From Nanobdellota archaeon (GTDB taxonomy: Archaea > Nanobdellota > Nanobdellia > Woesearchaeales > CAZZGN01): 55,049 nt of DNA. Both the position numbers and the translations under genes were made by a program. Positions 1,328 to 48,487 of the stretch are shown here, piece after piece. The notes beneath the pieces are model-generated. The model was not told the origin of the DNA. It did not search any database and saw nothing but the letters and a program-made list of their open reading frames with translations. Every line of letters starts with the position of its first letter. The first letter of the stretch is position 1. The stretch is from NCBI GenBank assembly GCA_051819665.1, contig JBNJDG010000004.1:1-55049 (forward strand). The letters are read 5' to 3'.

Positions 1328-1831
1328 ATGAAAAAGGAACAAGATAATACTCTGGAACCTGATTATGTTGTGCTTCCCATAAAGGAATATAGATTATTGA
1401 GGCGTGTCACTGAGGAGAATGAATCATGTATAAACTGGGTAACACATAGGGGCAGGAAGTTTCCCGGAAAACAGGAAAAAGCTGAGAACGATTTCTTTTA
1501 TAATCCTGATGTGAAGTATTTATTTTTCCAGGATAAGTCTTCTGAGAAACAGGGTTATGCCAGGATATTCAGGGATATAGAGAATAATGGTTGGGTAGAT
1601 GGAATATTCGGGGAGGGACCTTTTGGTATCCAGGATATAGTGGAGCCTCTGAAAGGGCATTTTGATAAGATGTTTGATGGCAGCCCTTACGTAATCAATA
1701 GTCCTGAATTCATCGATCTTCAGGAATACAGGAAGGAACTCAGGATGAAGGAAGAACCCCGTTACTCTTTCAGGTTCAAGGCAGACAAGGAGTATATCCT
1801 GAAGGATCTCTTCTCCGGATATAAAGGTTGA
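1328..1831 (+). CDS. Hypothetical protein, paralog of 11668-12159 (SCI...NPDV...GYxRxF...GWxDxI family)
   Basis: TATA-like AAATTTATAA upstream; clear by-eye alignment to the 11668 ORF. Confidence 0.8.
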   Translation: MKKEQDNTLEPDYVVLPIKEYRLLRRVTEENESCINWVTHRGRKFPGKQEKAENDFFYNPDVKYLFFQDKSSEKQGYARIFRDIENNGWVDGIFGEGPFGIQDIVEPLKGHFDKMFDGSPYVINSPEFIDLQEYRKELRMKEEPRYSFRFKADKEYILKDLFSGYKG

Positions 1832-3058
1832 TCAATACCTCTTTTTCTTTTTCTTCTTGATCATGATCAACAGCAGTAAGATAACGACTATTATCGCGAT
1901 GTATATCAAGGCGCTGGAAGACTGCTCGGAAGATTCTTTCCTGGAAGCTTCTTTGTTTGTCCCGTTATATTCGACATCTGACGGATTCACATTTATTACA
2001 TTTGATTTCTCGAAGCTCTGCTTATCCTCGTAATATATCCTTCCTTTGACCTTATATCTGCCCGGTTTCTCAGGGGAGAAAGTCATAGGTATCTCTCCGG
2101 TCTCACTGCTTTCGATCTCCATATTACCGGATTCAAGGTTCTTGACAACTTTATTATCTAGCATTATATCTCCTTTGAATACTGCAGAAACATCTTTCTC
2201 ACCAGTGTTCTTGAAGATAGGTTTTACTTCTATATCATCACCCACATTGTTCCATACCTTGTTCTTTATCTGTACAAGCTTTCCTGAGACGCTCATTGCT
2301 CCTGGTTCCAGGACATCAAAGGTCATCGTGTCCTCAAAACCGCAGGGTTCTACCGAGACATCTGCGAAATACTGGCCTATGTCGAGATCATCGGTGCTTA
2401 ATGATGTAGTGAATTCTTTCCTCAGAGTAGGTCCTATCTCGGTCTTATTCTTCCTGACCGTCTTGACGATCTCACTCTGATCCTTGTTCCAGACATCTAT
2501 CTCCACTTCGGGATTGAGCCAGACATTCCCATAGTTGATGGTCCTGAAATCGAAGTCAATCTCATTGCCCATCTCTGCGTTCTCTACATTCGAGGACAGA
2601 ACCTGGCAGTCTACTATCTCGTCATCGGAGATCTCTATGCTAAGCCTTGAAGCTACAGCTGTCTCTATTATAGCACTTGTCTGTCCTTCGAAATCCCTGT
2701 CCATATCTATCCTGAATCTCATGAGGGTCTTGTATACACCATTGGGTACATCTGCGGGAGGTTCTACTATGACGGTCATACGCTGGGGATTACCTTCTGA
2801 GATATTGAAGCTTGTAACATTGGGCTCAAAGGAGATCCAGTCGTTAGCAGTGGCATTGTGCTTTAGAGACCTCCTGATAGTCAGTTGTTCGTCTGTGGAA
2901 GTGGATACCCTGAAATCCCTTTCAGCATACCCGTTCCTGAGAAGATCAGTCATGTTTATGTTGACCGGATTGATTGCCAGCCCGATGGCCATAGCATTAT
3001 TGACGAGCAAAATCAGAAAAACCGCGTATATCAATATTTTCATGTTCATTTTTTCCAC
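1832..3058 (-). CDS. Secreted, C-terminally membrane-anchored multi-Ig-domain protein; PapD/DUF916(WxLIP)-like chaperone candidate
   Basis: Signal peptide ending AMA. N-domain pattern INPxxI...WISFEP...VIVEPPADVPNGVY. Two further Ig-like domains with NxG(N/E) and GxY motifs. C-terminal TM helix followed by KKKKKKRY. The CDS is secure; the family call is by pattern. Confidence 0.75.
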   Translation of the reverse strand: MEKMNMKILIYAVFLILLVNNAMAIGLAINPVNINMTDLLRNGYAERDFRVSTSTDEQLTIRRSLKHNATANDWISFEPNVTSFNISEGNPQRMTVIVEPPADVPNGVYKTLMRFRIDMDRDFEGQTSAIIETAVASRLSIEISDDEIVDCQVLSSNVENAEMGNEIDFDFRTINYGNVWLNPEVEIDVWNKDQSEIVKTVRKNKTEIGPTLRKEFTTSLSTDDLDIGQYFADVSVEPCGFEDTMTFDVLEPGAMSVSGKLVQIKNKVWNNVGDDIEVKPIFKNTGEKDVSAVFKGDIMLDNKVVKNLESGNMEIESSETGEIPMTFSPEKPGRYKVKGRIYYEDKQSFEKSNVINVNPSDVEYNGTNKEASRKESSEQSSSALIYIAIIVVILLLLIMIKKKKKKRY

Positions 3059-3090: not shown

Positions 3091-3984
3091 CTATGATGAT
3101 ACTGCGCCGAAATAGACTTTTCCTGTGCATGCTCCCAGTGCGCCTGATTCGGGGACATGAAGCCTCCAGTATATCAGGTCTGAGGTAGGAGGGGAATCAT
3201 TCCCAGTAGCCTTAGTAAGGTTCTCGTCGAGGATGACCGTGCCTCCGCTTCCGACCATTGAGGTTCCTGTAAGCGTACCTCCTGTATCGGAGCTTGCGTT
3301 TATGTTCTCTGCAGGGATCGAGCCTGAATCACAATCCATTGCCTCAGTGTCTGAAGTTCCTGTAGAAGAGTCATTGTATACATCAAGTTCAGTGTCTATC
3401 TCTACGTTCCCTTCATTTTCATATGTGGAGCTTTTCTCATTTGAGGTCTCCCCGACTCCTATTTCCCCAAAATCTATAAGCAGGCTGTCGGGAATATCTA
3501 TAGCAAGAAGCTCGTTCATGGTGGCATTGTCATCCTCGCTTGCATTACTGTTACCGTCAATATCTGTTGCATTTATCCTGCAGTGCCATTCTCCCGGTTC
3601 AGCGTAGAACTCAACATCAGGGAAGAGGCATTCGGCTTCTCCTGAAGCGCTTTCGTATGTACAGTCGGGGTTTGAATAATGGAAATCGTCCTGATCACCA
3701 TCTCCGAGATAACTGCTTGGTCCGTATATCTCTGCAGATACATTATCTATGTCGCTGTTGCCGTTAGGATCAGTAACATCCGCCGAGCAGTTGAGAAGTG
3801 TCTCTGTTCCGGCAGTGAGGTCCATCTCATTATCTCCTCTAATGTCATCATTCAGCTCTACATTGGAGACGTTCGGGACAGAGGTTATATTGACCTGTGT
3901 ATCCCCTGTTTCAGACTGGTCCGAGAAAGCGGAATAACTGCATAATACAAACAGGACCACTATCATCAACCATACATTCCTCAA
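3091..3984 (-). CDS. Secreted acidic six-Cys surface-protein paralog 1 (putative fibre/pilin-like subunit)
   Basis: TTG start with GAGGTG SD; signal peptide; ADVTDPNG, FPDVEFYAEPGEWHC, IDFG, NEGN, MDC and WxLxVP..GxCxGxVxFGA motifs shared with four neighbours. Confidence 0.85.
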   Translation of the reverse strand: MRNVWLMIVVLFVLCSYSAFSDQSETGDTQVNITSVPNVSNVELNDDIRGDNEMDLTAGTETLLNCSADVTDPNGNSDIDNVSAEIYGPSSYLGDGDQDDFHYSNPDCTYESASGEAECLFPDVEFYAEPGEWHCRINATDIDGNSNASEDDNATMNELLAIDIPDSLLIDFGEIGVGETSNEKSSTYENEGNVEIDTELDVYNDSSTGTSDTEAMDCDSGSIPAENINASSDTGGTLTGTSMVGSGGTVILDENLTKATGNDSPPTSDLIYWRLHVPESGALGACTGKVYFGAVSS

Positions 3985-43466: not shown

Positions 43467-43722
43467 ACTGGAAGTTGTAAAAGACATCCTGACCTCGATA
43501 AGGAACAGGGATGGTAGGATTAAACGTACCCATATCCTTTACAAGGCGAACCTTTCTCACCGGATGCTGGATGAATATCTCAATGATCTAATTTCCAGAG
43601 GTTTTGTCGAGGAATTGGAGCAGAAGAAAGGCAAGAGGTACAGGCTTACACAAAGAGGTCATGAATATCTGAATAAATTCAATATGGTCTCCGGATTCAT
43701 GGATCTCTTCGGTTTCGATTAA
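43447..43722 (+). CDS. Winged-helix transcriptional regulator (archaeal HTH_45-like)
   Basis: KRS.LE...DIL, T.ILYKANLS......YL..L...G......Y.LT..G..YL. Confidence 0.88.
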   Translation: MGSKRSKLEVVKDILTSIRNRDGRIKRTHILYKANLSHRMLDEYLNDLISRGFVEELEQKKGKRYRLTQRGHEYLNKFNMVSGFMDLFGFD

Positions 43723-44882
43723 TCATTAAGGAACTCTTCCTTGCTTATCCTTTCAGGAGGAGCTTCTGTATCATAGTAATCGAAATATCTTGTTTCTTTA
43801 GTGGTTGGTTCTATCGGGTCTCCCTCTTCTTTCCTCCTGCTTATGATCTCCCAGGGAGTAGGCCTGTCTATACCATATTCAGAGACACAGAGTTTTTCTT
43901 TGATGTCATTTGAAAGATTATTGCATTCATAGGCATTTATAGTTATGTTCTTCTTGTCAAAAGCCGGCTCGTCATCAAGATAGAGGCTTATATCGAAATT
44001 GACTGTCCTGGTTTCTCCGGGGCCAAGGGCTTTCTTGGAACCCCAGCCCCATGCTATATCTTTCCCTCTGCCTTTCATATCAAGGACTACCCGCTCGGTT
44101 TGCCCGTTGATTATCGTGATGTTCTTCCTCCATATCTCATCTTCAAAGTCCCCTCTGGTCCTGGAGAAATCCTGCCATTCTATCTTCAGCTCTCCATCTC
44201 CTTCTGGTCTTGACCTGTCCTGTTTGAAACTGCATTCGTCCTCTCTCATGGCTTCCTGGATCAGATTGTTGACCTCTTTGCCGTCTATTGTATAGTTCCT
44301 CATGTCCTGATTGACTGAAGGATCAAGCGTGTCCCTGAAATATTCTGCGAAGGCATCTTTCATTCCTGGAGATAAGTTGCAGTCCATCTCTCCCTGGCCC
44401 GGTATAATCTGTATGAAATGGCAATCTTCTCCTTCCTGACCGATAATTTCCCTTCCGATCTTACCTGCGGTTAGTGGATGTTCCGCTTTGCATGAGTATG
44501 GTTCACAGTTCTGTATCTTTTCAGGGAGAGCCTCGCATCCAGGACTGGCTTTGTCCTTCTCGGTTAAGTTATCCTGTTCTGCAGGATCCTTCTCAGGCCC
44601 TTTTTCTTCGCCGGTCGTTTCATCTTCACTTTGCTTGTCATCTGATTGGGTCATGAAAGCCATGGCTCCTCCTATAAGTAGCAGTATTATTATGCCGGTA
44701 GTGATGAGGATGGTCGATCTTCTTGAGTCTCCTTTCTCTGGTTCTTCAGAAGCAGCTTTCATTGCCTTCTCTACATCTTTAGGGTCGTGTCCCTGCTTGA
44801 CCAGGTGTTCATAACACTGTCTTGAAGAAAAGCCTCTTGATTGCGCTTCCCTGAACCATTCCACCAGCTTCTTATTGGCCAT
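43719..44882 (-). CDS. Single-pass membrane protein with a small cytoplasmic N-domain and Cys-containing ectodomain
   Basis: N-terminal L..W.....RG.S......L.KQG..P.DVE.AM, then TM, then ectodomain. Confidence 0.75.
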   Translation of the reverse strand: MANKKLVEWFREAQSRGFSSRQCYEHLVKQGHDPKDVEKAMKAASEEPEKGDSRRSTILITTGIIILLLIGGAMAFMTQSDDKQSEDETTGEEKGPEKDPAEQDNLTEKDKASPGCEALPEKIQNCEPYSCKAEHPLTAGKIGREIIGQEGEDCHFIQIIPGQGEMDCNLSPGMKDAFAEYFRDTLDPSVNQDMRNYTIDGKEVNNLIQEAMREDECSFKQDRSRPEGDGELKIEWQDFSRTRGDFEDEIWRKNITIINGQTERVVLDMKGRGKDIAWGWGSKKALGPGETRTVNFDISLYLDDEPAFDKKNITINAYECNNLSNDIKEKLCVSEYGIDRPTPWEIISRRKEEGDPIEPTTKETRYFDYYDTEAPPERISKEEFLND

Positions 44883-45019: not shown

Positions 45020-45835
45020 TCAGAGGAATTCTTTCAGGGATTTGTATCTCTTAAGCATATTTTTTCCTTTCTTGAGGTAATAACCGATCAATTGGGGTTT
45101 AACATCAAATTCTTCTGCAATACCTGCCATGGATGATTCGTATTCGCCGATACCATAGAACTTTCTGAGAGTGTATGCTATGTTCTCATTCTTTTTGGCA
45201 ATATCCTCCAGAGCCGATTCCAGCCTTGCTTTTAGATGATGTTCGTCCAGTCTATGTCCGGGAACTTCGAAAGTTTCATTAGGTAATCTCTCCTCATAGG
45301 TTCTCTCGTTGCCTAATCTATGGTCTATGTACCTGGCCTTGAGGGGAACTTTGTGATCTTCTGAAACCGAATGTTCGGGTACGTCGCTGAGAAGTTCATG
45401 AGTAAGGGACTCAACTTTTTCTGAATTCTCTTTTAAAGACCTTTGTTTATTCTTTGGTATCCTTATTGCATTGGTCTGGTCCCTTACGTATTCTATGATT
45501 GATGCCCTTATATTCCATACTGCATAGGATATGAATTTGAACCCTCTTGTCTCATCAAAGCTTTCTGCAGCCTTGATGAGGCCTTTGTTACCCTCATTGA
45601 CCATATCAGATAATGGAGCGTTCTCATGCCTGTATTGTTTTGCTATTGATACTACGAACCTGAGATTTGATTTTATTAGTGTCTCTTTGGCCTTTTCATC
45701 ACCCTTCTTTAACCTATATGCAAGTTCAGACTCCTCTTCAGGCTTCAATAAAGGGTATTTCTTGATTTCGTTGATATATTTGTTCAGTATGTATCCGTTG
45801 TTCAACGGCCTTTCCTGTATCTTTATCTGTCTCAT
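45020..45835 (-). CDS. Bacterial-type RNA polymerase sigma-70 (RpoD/RpoS-like) factor
   Basis: Region 1.2 LNKYINEI..YPLL..EEE.EL; region 2 NLRFVVSIAKQY..LSDMVNEGN.GLIKAAE.FDETRGFKFISYAVW; IRIP; degenerate region 4. Confidence 0.92.
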   Translation of the reverse strand: MRQIKIQERPLNNGYILNKYINEIKKYPLLKPEEESELAYRLKKGDEKAKETLIKSNLRFVVSIAKQYRHENAPLSDMVNEGNKGLIKAAESFDETRGFKFISYAVWNIRASIIEYVRDQTNAIRIPKNKQRSLKENSEKVESLTHELLSDVPEHSVSEDHKVPLKARYIDHRLGNERTYEERLPNETFEVPGHRLDEHHLKARLESALEDIAKKNENIAYTLRKFYGIGEYESSMAGIAEEFDVKPQLIGYYLKKGKNMLKRYKSLKEFL

Positions 45836-45881
45836 CAAGTAAGGGTGTGTTAACTAGATTAATAAAGATATCGTTTTTTGT

Positions 45882-46172
45882 TCATAATCCCTGTTTCTCC
45901 ATCCTCTCCCTGATGATCTTGACAAGCTCTGGATCCATATACTCGAATCTGTCGGGAATTTCAAGAGAGAGGGTCTTATCGGAGGGAAAGAATCGTTTCA
46001 TCCAGTCTTCCATGACAATGATCTTATCTGCCCATTGTTTTGCTGAGTTAGTTACTGGCTTTACGGCCATCGGATGCACTCCTGCGGATTTTGCCTCATA
46101 CTTGTCCTTATATAGTTCTTCTGCAGTCGGACTTCTCTGCAGATTTGCGTGGCAGATGAATAATACTTTCAT
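45882..46172 (-). CDS. Low-molecular-weight phosphotyrosine phosphatase-like protein
   Basis: VLFIC..N..RS.TAE, SAG, WAD.I.VME, L.IPD.F..MDPEL. Confidence 0.88.
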   Translation of the reverse strand: MKVLFICHANLQRSPTAEELYKDKYEAKSAGVHPMAVKPVTNSAKQWADKIIVMEDWMKRFFPSDKTLSLEIPDRFEYMDPELVKIIRERMEKQGL

Positions 46173-46182
46173 TTTTATCACC

Positions 46183-47757
46183 TTATTTAATACAGGTCAT
46201 GTTGATGCATTCATAACCTTTTGCACAATGTTTGTCCTTATAACAGTCTATGCAGGACTCGCTCTTCTCTACACAGGTTTGAGTACCGCCGGTACATCCG
46301 GTGCATTCTTCGTTGCAGTCATCATCAGAAGCGCATTCAGAGGGGCTGTTACCTCCGCTGACGGTGATCGTCTGTGAGAAAGAGCTTATCGGTTCAATGT
46401 CCTTTATATCTTCATTCTCTGTATCATCACATTGTTTTCCTGTTTCTGCTCTTATTATCCTGCAATCATATATATCTATAACATAATTGAAATTTCCTTC
46501 TGAGTAGAAGCTGTCCGTGAATCTTTCATCTACGTATTCTTCTGTCCTGAATGCCCGGTAACTTTTTTCATCGTGCTGATGTATATTTCCAGTTATCATC
46601 TCCTGATATATCCTGTTTGTGCCTTCTTTATTGTAGTTATAAGTGATCAATGTCTCAAGAGGTCCTCCGGAATATTCAATGCTGAAATTCCCTTCTACTG
46701 GTTCTCCCATCTCAAAGTTGGTCCTGTTTATGCCTTCAATCGTTATCTCTCTGTCCAACTCCTTAATGCTTATTATGGGGTATTCGTCCTTTATTGATAC
46801 GAGGGTTATCCTGAGTTCGTCTATGCTGTCATTATCAGTGTCAAGCCCTTTGAACTCGCCGGTGTTGAAGTTCATCTCTGTATTATCATCGAAAATAAGC
46901 CTTGCGCTTTCCTTTCCGGTTTTCCCGGATATAAGAGTGTGCTCTTCACCTTTATGATCAAAGGAGGTCTTGTGTTTGAGCTTTATATTTGTAATATTAT
47001 CTAAGCTGATGTATGCTATATTCTCGCATCTGGCTTTCTTGGTTGAGGGTTTCTTGCATGTATCCTTTGTGGCACGATACCCGTCATTGCAGTCTGCATC
47101 ATTACAGCATTCGTATGAGATACATGATTTGTTCTCTTTGAATTGGCAGTCTCCACAGGTAAGGCTTTCGATATTACCTTTTTCACCAGTGTCTGTTTCT
47201 TTCCCTTCTTCTTCCCCGATAGGATTCGTTAAGAACGATATGAGGACAATGGAGATGATTATCATGAAGACCGCTCCGATGATGATCTTTTCGTATGACT
47301 TCTGCTTATTTTTGTCTTTATTCTTGTTTTCTTTCCCCTCTTCTTCCTTGTCTTGTCCGGTTTTCTTTTTCTGCTCAATCTTTTCAAGGTATTCCTTTGA
47401 GGGTTTTGGCGGAGCTGGAGGGTTGTTATTGAGCTTATCTTTCTGTTCACTCTTCTCTTTTGATCCCTTTTTCCCTTTTTGGCCTTTATTATCCTTTGCT
47501 GATCGTTTATTTTCTTCTAATTTCTCAGGGTTTTTTTTGGAGGAACCGGGAGGAGAGGTATTATTGGCCTTGGGCTCATCTTTCTTTGTTGTTTTCTTCT
47601 TTGATTCTTTTTTCTTTGATCCTGCTTTCTCAGTCTTATCTTCGCTCTTTTCCTTAGAATCTGCTTTTTTTTCTTTCTCCTCTTCCTTGATGATATCTTC
47701 AGGAGAGACAGAATGATCCTTCTTATACCTCTTACCATACTTCATCAAAAAAGACAT
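46183..47757 (-). CDS. Single-pass membrane protein with a Lys/Glu-rich disordered cytoplasmic domain and Cys-rich ectodomain
   Basis: ~155 aa low-complexity N-terminus, TM, CC..DADC.D repeats, Cys-rich C-terminus. Confidence 0.78.
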   Translation of the reverse strand: MSFLMKYGKRYKKDHSVSPEDIIKEEEKEKKADSKEKSEDKTEKAGSKKKESKKKTTKKDEPKANNTSPPGSSKKNPEKLEENKRSAKDNKGQKGKKGSKEKSEQKDKLNNNPPAPPKPSKEYLEKIEQKKKTGQDKEEEGKENKNKDKNKQKSYEKIIIGAVFMIIISIVLISFLTNPIGEEEGKETDTGEKGNIESLTCGDCQFKENKSCISYECCNDADCNDGYRATKDTCKKPSTKKARCENIAYISLDNITNIKLKHKTSFDHKGEEHTLISGKTGKESARLIFDDNTEMNFNTGEFKGLDTDNDSIDELRITLVSIKDEYPIISIKELDREITIEGINRTNFEMGEPVEGNFSIEYSGGPLETLITYNYNKEGTNRIYQEMITGNIHQHDEKSYRAFRTEEYVDERFTDSFYSEGNFNYVIDIYDCRIIRAETGKQCDDTENEDIKDIEPISSFSQTITVSGGNSPSECASDDDCNEECTGCTGGTQTCVEKSESCIDCYKDKHCAKGYECINMTCIK

Positions 47758-48413: not shown

Positions 48414-48487
48414 GGGGCCGTGTTGTAGCTTGGCTATCATCGGTGGTTCGGGGCCACCCGACCGGAGTTCGAATCTCCGCGGCCCCA
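48414..48487 (+). tRNA. tRNA-Pro (CGG)
   Basis: GGGGCCG/CGGCCCC acceptor, GGTGG-TTCGGGG-CCACC anticodon arm, CGGAG-TTCGAAT-CTCCG T arm. Confidence 0.93.

Follow-up and report, generated by a model that had tools for sequence, protein, structure and literature searches.

The DNA analysed here, the 55,049-nucleotide contig JBNJDG010000004.1 of a Nanobdellota archaeon of the order Woesearchaeales (the whole contig is hereafter called the window), encodes at 45020-45835, on the minus strand, a genuine and intact protein of the bacterial sigma-70 family. It is a domesticated bacterial-type sigma gene residing in an archaeon, probably transcribed, and its product is probably a lineage-specific, Bacteroidota-like sigma-70 paralog. 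Two further sigma genes of the same genome keep the canonical promoter-reading residues, while in the window copy these residues have been exchanged. We give about an even chance to the explanation that we favour, namely that the window copy is a maintained paralog which has re-tuned or lost its promoter reading and which shares a docking partner with its canonical sisters.

Transcription initiation in archaea relies on TBP, TFB and TFE. What a bacterial sigma factor would bind to there is not evident, yet roughly one in three of the genomes sampled from this archaeal order retains at least one, mostly with canonical residues. The present small genome is a natural experiment in which two canonical copies stand beside one with all canonical base-reading residues exchanged, and a comparison of the three proteins bears on whether such factors have been co-opted by the archaeal machinery, have a free DNA-binding role or act on the polymerase of another organism. 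If the window copy were merely a drifting duplicate, the finding would be an ordinary one. A preliminary description of this DNA took no account of two facts, namely that the family is already published (Castelle 2021, PMC8204110) and that the genome has the two canonical paralogs. What is new here, as compared with the main text of that paper, is the replaced-residue copy beside canonical paralogs, and not sigma-70 in DPANN archaea itself.

That the open reading frame (ORF) of 271 codons is full length and RpoD-like, as had been proposed, was borne out by Pfam, TIGR02937 and Foldseek. The Pfam model Sigma70_r2 matched residues 53-121 with 58.2 bits (cut-off 24) and Sigma70_r1_2 scored 37.1 bits (cut-off 22), so that region 1.2 is present, and the NCBIfam sigma-70 superfamily model TIGR02937, covering sigma-2 and sigma-4, matched residues 49-264 with 81.4 bits against a cut-off of 42.9. 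The Pfam models of regions 3 and 4 gave no match to the protein at E<=1, and it fell far under the cut-offs of all the NCBIfam equivalogs (RpoS, RpoD, RpoH, SigA and others). The highest of those of the RpoD, RpoS and SigA type was RpoS TIGR02394 (130.6 against 378.7 bits), RpoD_Cterm TIGR02393 gave 99.5 against 354 bits, and the RpoH models, which were among the better NCBIfam matches, gave 109.2 against 323.1 bits (TIGR02392) and 110.9 against 241 bits (NF005143). The best relatives of solved structure are primary and stationary-phase sigma factors (7l7b_F, SigA, E 1.5e-31), and Foldseek, run with the predicted model, returned only sigma chains at the top (E about 1e-11). The likeness to Bacteroidota was also confirmed: apart from a paralog in the same genome, the best database matches are proteins of 284-287 amino acids with 39-42% identity, some of them named RpoD or SigA of Prevotella, Bacteroidia or Ignavibacterium, and many relatives of this length have an MRQLKI start and the motif GFKFISYAVWWIRQ. 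A TTG lies one codon 5' of the ATG of the window gene.

The window protein was aligned to E. coli K-12 RpoD, the numbering of which is used below. In group 1 and group 2 sigma factors, W433, W434 and Q437 (with T440 and R441) read the -10 element and R584, E585, R588 and Q589 read the -35 element; Y430 and W433 are the melting residues, and the helix of region 2.2 is the surface that docks on the polymerase clamp (the beta' clamp helices) in bacteria. The core-binding region is intact, as had been stated, since region 2.2 (DMVNEGNKGLIKAAESFD) keeps D403, E407, G408, N409, G411 and L412, and Y430 and W433 (W107 of the window protein) are retained as well. On the region 2.4 side, W434 has become N108, Q437 A111, T440 I114 and R441 E115, in agreement with the described change of WWIRQ to WNIRA. 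The replacement of the region 4.2 TRERVRQ helix by KPQLIGY is equally clear in the alignment, where T583 corresponds to K246, R584 to P247, E585 to Q248, R586 to L249, R588 to G251 and Q589 to Y252. Region 3 is indeed shortened: it has 68 residues, whereas E. coli RpoD and a Prevotella-type sigma both have 81. An AlphaFold2 model based on a 30-row alignment had predicted local distance difference test (pLDDT) values of about 90 or higher in sigma-2 (residues 13-121; above 88 for 21-120), a single helix at 128-150 and then a poorly defined stretch in region 3 (49-64 for about 151-200), and four helices at 194-262 in sigma-4 (90-94 for residues 201-260). The net charge is +5 for the recognition helix and +3 for the whole of sigma-4.

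A Pfam region 2 search found three sigma genes in the genome, the window copy and two others on a contig of 8.4 kb (C41). The first of these, C41a (276-282 amino acids), has WWIRQT and SSERVRQ, and the second, C41b (267 amino acids), has WWIRQS and TRERIRQ; both match Pfam Sigma70_r4 (E-values of 5e-4 and 8e-10, respectively), and both have a short, degenerate region 3 like that of the window copy. As WWIRQ and (S/T)xERxRQ are retained in both C41 copies, it is the window copy that stands apart. In a maximum-likelihood tree of 74 sigma domains, a quick run with support from the Shimodaira-Hasegawa-like approximate likelihood ratio test (SH-aLRT) only, the window copy grouped with C41a (83) and then with C41b (83), inside a six-member clade (98) whose remaining members are a sequence of G191, which is another genome of the order, and two database proteins. 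As judged from this tree, the window copy would have arisen by duplication within a small archaeal clade. The terminal branches measure 1.11 for the window copy, 0.71 for C41a and 1.13 for C41b. Non-canonical 4.2 helices occur in four of the six clade members (KPQLIGY in the window copy, SPGQVNG in G191, TTRQVDL in P0144 and SNQRVND in P0005), and only in the window copy is WWIRQ changed as well. When the window gene was compared with C41a, the proportion of nonsynonymous differences (pN) was 0.35 and that of synonymous differences (pS) was 0.80, which is saturated (0.40 and 0.77 in the C-terminal half). The suggested selection check (dN/dS) thus gave a pN far below pS and no estimable ratio. 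The guanine-plus-cytosine (GC) content is 39.5% in the window gene versus 44% in the paralogs.

The DNA-reading residues had been called eroded, a word that presupposes a loss of function and that we do not retain. The frame is open, with the pN and pS values given above, sigma-2 and sigma-4 are predicted to be folded, and the recognition helix is basic. The residue equivalent to Q437 is an Ala in E. coli sigma-32 too, where the surrounding motif is similar (IKAEIHEYV versus IRASIIEYV in the window protein), so that changed specificity fits as well as loss. Departures from group 1 at the positions that read the -10 and -35 elements are general among alternative sigma factors. From these alignments it seems plausible that changed specificity explains the substitutions at least as well as erosion does.

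The archaeal TATA box reported 23 nucleotides before the ATG was verified, and TTTATTAA starts exactly at the position of -31 that is preferred in this genome. Indeed, among 863 long ORFs, 57 have a TTTAWWW that begins at -31 and 60 have one that begins at -30 (117 for both positions, with a background of about 3 per position), and its start falls within -33 to -28 in 193 of them. Judging by this spacing, transcripts in the genome appear to be largely leaderless, and the start at -31 implies a leaderless or near-leaderless sigma mRNA. On contig C41 the TATA spacing is as in the rest of the genome, and domain-diagnostic marker genes were not found there. C41a (locus L172, G000:C41:2746-4189, G000 being the present genome) starts one base past the stop of a YggS-family pyridoxal phosphate (PLP) enzyme gene which has a TATA at about -29; C41a probably shares this TATA, the two genes forming an operon-like pair. 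For C41b, a separate TATA-like element lies at about -33 to -24.

Further evidence came from short contigs of four metatranscriptome libraries of one study, which are possibly related to the source sample of the assembly. Contigs from three of the four runs cover parts of the sigma ORF: the pieces at 45418-45659 (run X1) and 45506-45656 (run X3) have zero differences, and run X2 has depth in 45458-45604. One contig (44278-45060) spans the 3' end of the gene into the downstream gene and another (45782-45932) spans its 5' end into the upstream gene. A check of assembly continuity had been advised, and as both sigma junctions are bridged in this way, a chimera is not supported. The contigs show contiguity and are consistent with transcription of the sigma gene.

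About 10 kb separate the sigma gene from the nearer end of the window. Its embedding in an archaeal chromosome, as described earlier, was upheld by TYW1 (384 bits, cut-off 318), archaeal RecJ (409 bits, cut-off 360) and the chromatin protein Sso10a, encoded 1.3 kb from the sigma gene (67 bits, cut-off 60), together with the bridged junctions, the host-type promoter, the paralogs and the homologs in relatives. Genes for a dimeric-type GlyRS and a Ski2/Hel308-like helicase are found on the same contig. The genome, whose 64 contigs sum to 1.12 Mb (completeness 96%, contamination 4.45%), carries TBP, TFB and a split A'/A'' polymerase subunit, and a search of it for bacterial core polymerase genes found none (no alpha C-terminal domain and no beta' match reaching the family cut-off).

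The spread of the family was surveyed with a profile made from a sigma alignment (A1) at E<=1e-10. Sigma genes were present in 99 of 301 sampled genomes of the archaeal order (78 of the 222 high-quality ones), many of which have several copies, up to six, and complete genomes of one contig (G017) and of three contigs (G028) are among the matches. In a phylum-level sample, also of 301 genomes and all at least 90% complete, 114 had a sigma gene, 31 of these belonging to other orders of the same class. These counts include the unpublished genomes G244, G182, G112, G132, G209, G121 and G422, and the rows L041, L044, L052 and L056 of the tree and motif comparisons likewise rest on unpublished genomes. 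Two types of sigma occur in the order, a Bacteroidota-like one, to which the window copy belongs, and a group-1-like one with FSTYATWWIRQ. The domains of the latter are often C-terminal in long open frames of about 500 to 1763 amino acids, as in G113:C5:268662-269519 (1763 amino acids), G095:C21, G206:C16 and G256:C3.

Residues were surveyed in 40 sequences of the order. These came from the best-scoring loci and so form a biased sample, in which region 2.2 hardly varies. W433, W434 and Q437 are kept in 33 and R584, E585, R588 and Q589 in 30, with both sets kept in 29 and neither in six; by single position, the RpoD residue is present at R584 in 31 sequences, at E585 in 34 and at each of W434, Q437, R588 and Q589 in 35. 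Three of the six doubly changed sequences, namely the window copy and those of G039 and G032, stand beside canonical copies in the same genome, and the other three (G019, G026 and G010) have no canonical full-length partner in the genomes searched. G039 has four sigma genes in tandem (G039:C3:16372-20262; L017, L031), three of them canonical, and the third gene in the direction of transcription (L031:126-1016, G039:C3:17271-18083), with WHIRQ and TTKEIIGI, parallels the double change of the window copy.

Two other observations concern the relatives of the window copy. The closest sigma of the order from another genome (G191) lies 43 bp downstream of a same-strand Spt5/NusG-like gene; at this locus (L033, G191:C2:12621-16463) the order is sigma 1501-2388(-), Spt5-like 2432-2938(-) and FtsZ-like 3147-3800(-). 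Spt5 binds the clamp coiled-coil of the polymerase, the site used by sigma region 2 in bacteria. We rejected the adjacency as a general pattern, since it was seen at this locus only and was absent from the other sigma loci compared and from the present genome, where the gene after Spt5 (C2:66830-67279) is that of a membrane protein. Relatives of the window sigma are also encoded by 405 IMG/VR stretches, and a viral origin was likewise rejected because these are no closer to it than bacterial proteins are. MRQLKI-type short sigma genes lie on many large viral contigs (150-675 kb; L088-L167), sometimes two per contig, and changes at the W434 position occur in the database relatives P0147, P0150, P0157 and P0221, which could be phage or archaeal.

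The window protein keeps the body of sigma-2, with helix 2.2, Y430 and W433, and a sigma-4 helix-turn-helix that is basic and predicted to be folded; in regions 2.4 and 4.2 the side chains that read bases are replaced by others, and region 3 is reduced. According to the explanation that we favour, the native archaeal TATA box would drive transcription of the gene into a leaderless or near-leaderless mRNA, and the window copy would act beside its two canonical sisters with a changed, re-tuned reading of DNA. It would dock on the same partner as they do and hence would also compete with them for it; that partner might be the clamp of the archaeon's own RNA polymerase. The non-canonical 4.2 helices in four of the six clade members and the Ala of sigma-32 make a changed specificity plausible, and the retention of the family in the order (99 of 301 genomes, with both residue sets canonical in 29 of 40 sequences) also speaks for this explanation. 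Maintenance of the gene is suggested by the open 271-codon frame, a pN lower than pS, the TATA box at -31, the predicted folds of sigma-2 and sigma-4 and the basic helix.

As for the partner, the A' clamp coiled-coil of the archaeal polymerase is homologous to the bacterial beta' clamp helices. The sets of sigma paralogs could act on the archaeal RNA polymerase, helix 2.2 docking at the TFE and Spt5 site of the A' coiled-coil and the window copy being a built-in antagonist or a re-targeted member, a scenario which we hold to be unlikely. If true, docking on the cell's own polymerase would be the first case in Archaea of a sigma-type layer of initiation or regulation. A complex prediction of the A' clamp (residues 1-391) with residues 1-135 of the window sigma scored 0.00, was run without controls and carries no weight either way.

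Several results weigh against the favoured explanation and its partner. C41a was the best non-self match in both cluster sets, with 45% identity in the set of 5.8 billion clusters at 90% identity (scored for its top 8000 word-sharing candidates) and with 44% among 1.84 billion representatives at 50% identity. Neither cluster set contains an ortholog of the window copy, and beyond its own paralog (44-45%) bacterial-type sigmas reach at most 42%, so that conservation of this copy across species cannot be shown. The search of a genome from the same family (82% complete) gave no sigma match. Simple bacterial-type promoter patterns in their consensus forms (TANNTTTG, TTTG-N17-21-TANNTTTG, TTG-N19-21-TANNNT and TGNTATAAT), were not enriched above mononucleotide shuffles upstream of 857 genes and had no positional peak, although a small regulon may escape such a test. 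The RNA-library contigs may carry DNA and show neither strand nor level. Confidence in the sigma-4 model leans on an alignment of mostly canonical sigmas. With a pS of 0.74-0.85 against either paralog, synonymous sites are saturated, and pN is below pS but gives no dN/dS ratio. With C41b as the outgroup, the window copy has 44 unique amino-acid changes versus 28 in C41a (chi-square 3.56), a modest acceleration that fits relaxation as well as re-tuning. In bacteria, R275, E295 and A302 of beta' matter for sigma binding. The A' clamp has I263, L283 and H290 where E. coli beta' has these residues, and its coiled-coil is invariant across 23 genomes of the order, with or without sigma genes.

The window copy could instead be a promoter-blind competitor which keeps only the sigma-2 docking surface and titrates the docking site of its canonical paralogs as a built-in antagonist. 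Region 2.2 is intact while the equivalents of W434, Q437, R584, E585, R586, R588 and Q589 have all been replaced, the protein coexists with two canonical copies, half of the six sequences of the order that have lost both residue sets stand beside canonical ones, and anti-sigma factors were not found in DPANN archaea according to the main account of the family (PMC8204110), all of which would suit such a role. However, a pure decoy has no need of sigma-4, which is here predicted to be folded and to have a basic recognition helix, W433 and Y430 are kept, and the other half of the doubly changed sequences have no canonical full-length partner, and we find this explanation rather doubtful. We consider it quite unlikely that the gene is a decaying duplicate, a redundant third copy under relaxed selection with its stop codon still to come, even though it has no ortholog and stands as a singleton, with a long terminal branch (1.11 versus 0.71 in C41a), no Pfam region 3 or region 4 match, a lower GC content than its paralogs and a modest excess of unique changes. 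By base composition about 6% of random codons would be stops, and the chance that the 135 codons of the C-terminal half, if randomised, contain none is about 2 in 10,000, whereas the entire 271-codon frame is open and pN is far below pS; the branch of C41b is equally long (1.13), yet its motifs are canonical, the TATA box is precisely placed, and RNA-library contigs lie on parts of the gene.

An action in trans, in which the sigma set would work on the polymerase of a bacterial partner and the window copy would be a decoy or a specificity variant, appears very unlikely to us. Phage sigma factors act on bacterial RNA polymerase, and MRQLKI-type sigmas are common on large phage contigs (the 405 stretches mentioned above); moreover, bacterial core polymerase genes were not found in the genome, yet most sigmas of the order keep the docking and reading residues (both reading sets in 29 of 40), and the order holds both Bacteroidota-like and group-1-like types. 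On the other hand, no secretion signal or delivery system turned up, although no dedicated search was made for one, no result points to transfer between cells, and we know of no bacterial host of this lineage. An assembly or binning artefact, by which a bacterial or phage gene was wrongly joined to archaeal DNA, would agree with the estimated contamination of the bin (4.45%) and with the closest non-self relatives being bacterial-type. It is refuted as far as the present data allow, and its probability is negligible: the gene is about 10 kb inside a 55-kb contig with archaeal markers, both junctions are bridged by the RNA-library contigs, the promoter is of the host type, homologs occur in the one-contig and three-contig genomes, and mis-binning was excluded for the family in the account of Castelle 2021 (PMC8204110).

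The features of the gene are listed in the table below. Upstream of it, at 45882-46181, is a small gene resembling those of low-molecular-weight (LMW) phosphatases, and this pair is flanked by same-strand ORFs at 43719-44882(-) and 46183-47757(-) which have no family match and have charged N-termini followed by a hydrophobic segment; the 524-amino-acid ORF next to the pair has a cysteine-rich C-terminal part. From these traits the two flanking ORFs look like fast-evolving surface proteins. In the genomes of relatives neither had a usable match, and as the downstream neighbour (387 amino acids) had no match in the same-family genome G001 and a weak partial one in G191, no ancestral empty or filled site can be defined. 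Phage genes were not found flanking the window sigma, nor were defence-system neighbours found near it, apart from partial MzaA sigma-domain matches. ARAGORN placed a tRNA-Pro (CGG) at 48414-48487(+), where the Rfam tRNA model stays below its gathering score; that model found the other two tRNAs of the window. The window also has an alpha/beta-hydrolase (lipase-like) gene and a YegS-type lipid kinase gene, which are uninformative on a bacterial partner.

Table. Features of the sigma gene in the window (positions of the whole stretch).
Feature	Position	Strand	Basis or remark
Sigma-70-family ORF, 271 aa (MRQIKI...)	45020..45835	minus	ATG 45835-45833, stop TGA 45022-45020
TATA box TTTATTAA	45859..45866	minus	start at -31 from ATG, 23 nt between
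Regions 1.2 to 2.4 (sigma-2), residues 13-125	45461..45799	minus	Pfam r1_2 and r2, pLDDT, residue table
Altered region 2.3/2.4 (W107 kept; N108, A111, I114, E115 changed)	45491..45517	minus	alignment to E. coli RpoD
Short, degenerate region 3, residues 126-193	45257..45460	minus	length, no Pfam r3 match, pLDDT
Sigma-4, residues 194-271, predicted four-helix fold	45023..45256	minus	pLDDT, TIGR02937 to residue 264
KPQLIGY replacing TRERxRQ, start of region 4.2 recognition helix	45080..45100	minus	alignment to E. coli RpoD

Among known systems, MzaA, the sigma of the MZA anti-phage system (about 700 amino acids), is matched by the window protein in its sigma-2 part only (PADLOC positions 412-510 of 683), and the corresponding NCBIfam model gave 106 against 800 bits. 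The IMG/VR phage sigmas are of the MRQLKI type and occur, as the window copy does, outside a bacterial chromosome, but their full-length identity to it is at most 38%, with higher values only in N-terminal segments. When compared with group 1 and group 2 sigmas, the window protein has region 1.2 but departs from them in region 3, in the equivalog scores and in the -10 and -35 residues. E. coli RpoH shares with it the Ala at the Q437 position, but has AERVRQ in region 4.2 and HW at 433/434, where the window protein has KPQLIGY and WN, and the nearest relatives of the window copy are Bacteroidota-type sigmas rather than RpoH.

The short primary sigmas of Bacteroidota and relatives (about 287 amino acids, with MRQLKIT and GFKFISYAVWWIRQS...TRERVRQIKEKA) are those most similar to it over the full length outside its own genome, and have in common with it the N-terminus, regions 1.2-2.3 and a C-terminal L(K/R)x(F/Y)L tail. 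In contrast to them, the window protein has no Pfam region 3 or region 4 match, a region 3 that is 13 residues shorter and changed -10 and -35 residues, and its gene resides in an archaeal genome in which bacterial core polymerase genes were not found. In the literature, Castelle 2021 (PMC8204110) is the only account that we found of sigma factors in DPANN archaea, and a term search of PMC11606122, PMC11705971, PMC7289017 and bioRxiv 10.64898/2026.05.13.725050 added nothing on the subject. That account, in its main text, describes sigma-70 genes (fam00359) that are prevalent in Woesearchaeota, excludes mis-binning, reports that anti-sigma factors were not found and leaves the mechanism unclear; that main text does not describe paralog sets or replaced-residue copies, both of which are seen in the present genome. 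The window gene is nevertheless like the set described there, a sigma-70 gene on an archaeal contig in a genome with TBP and TFB.

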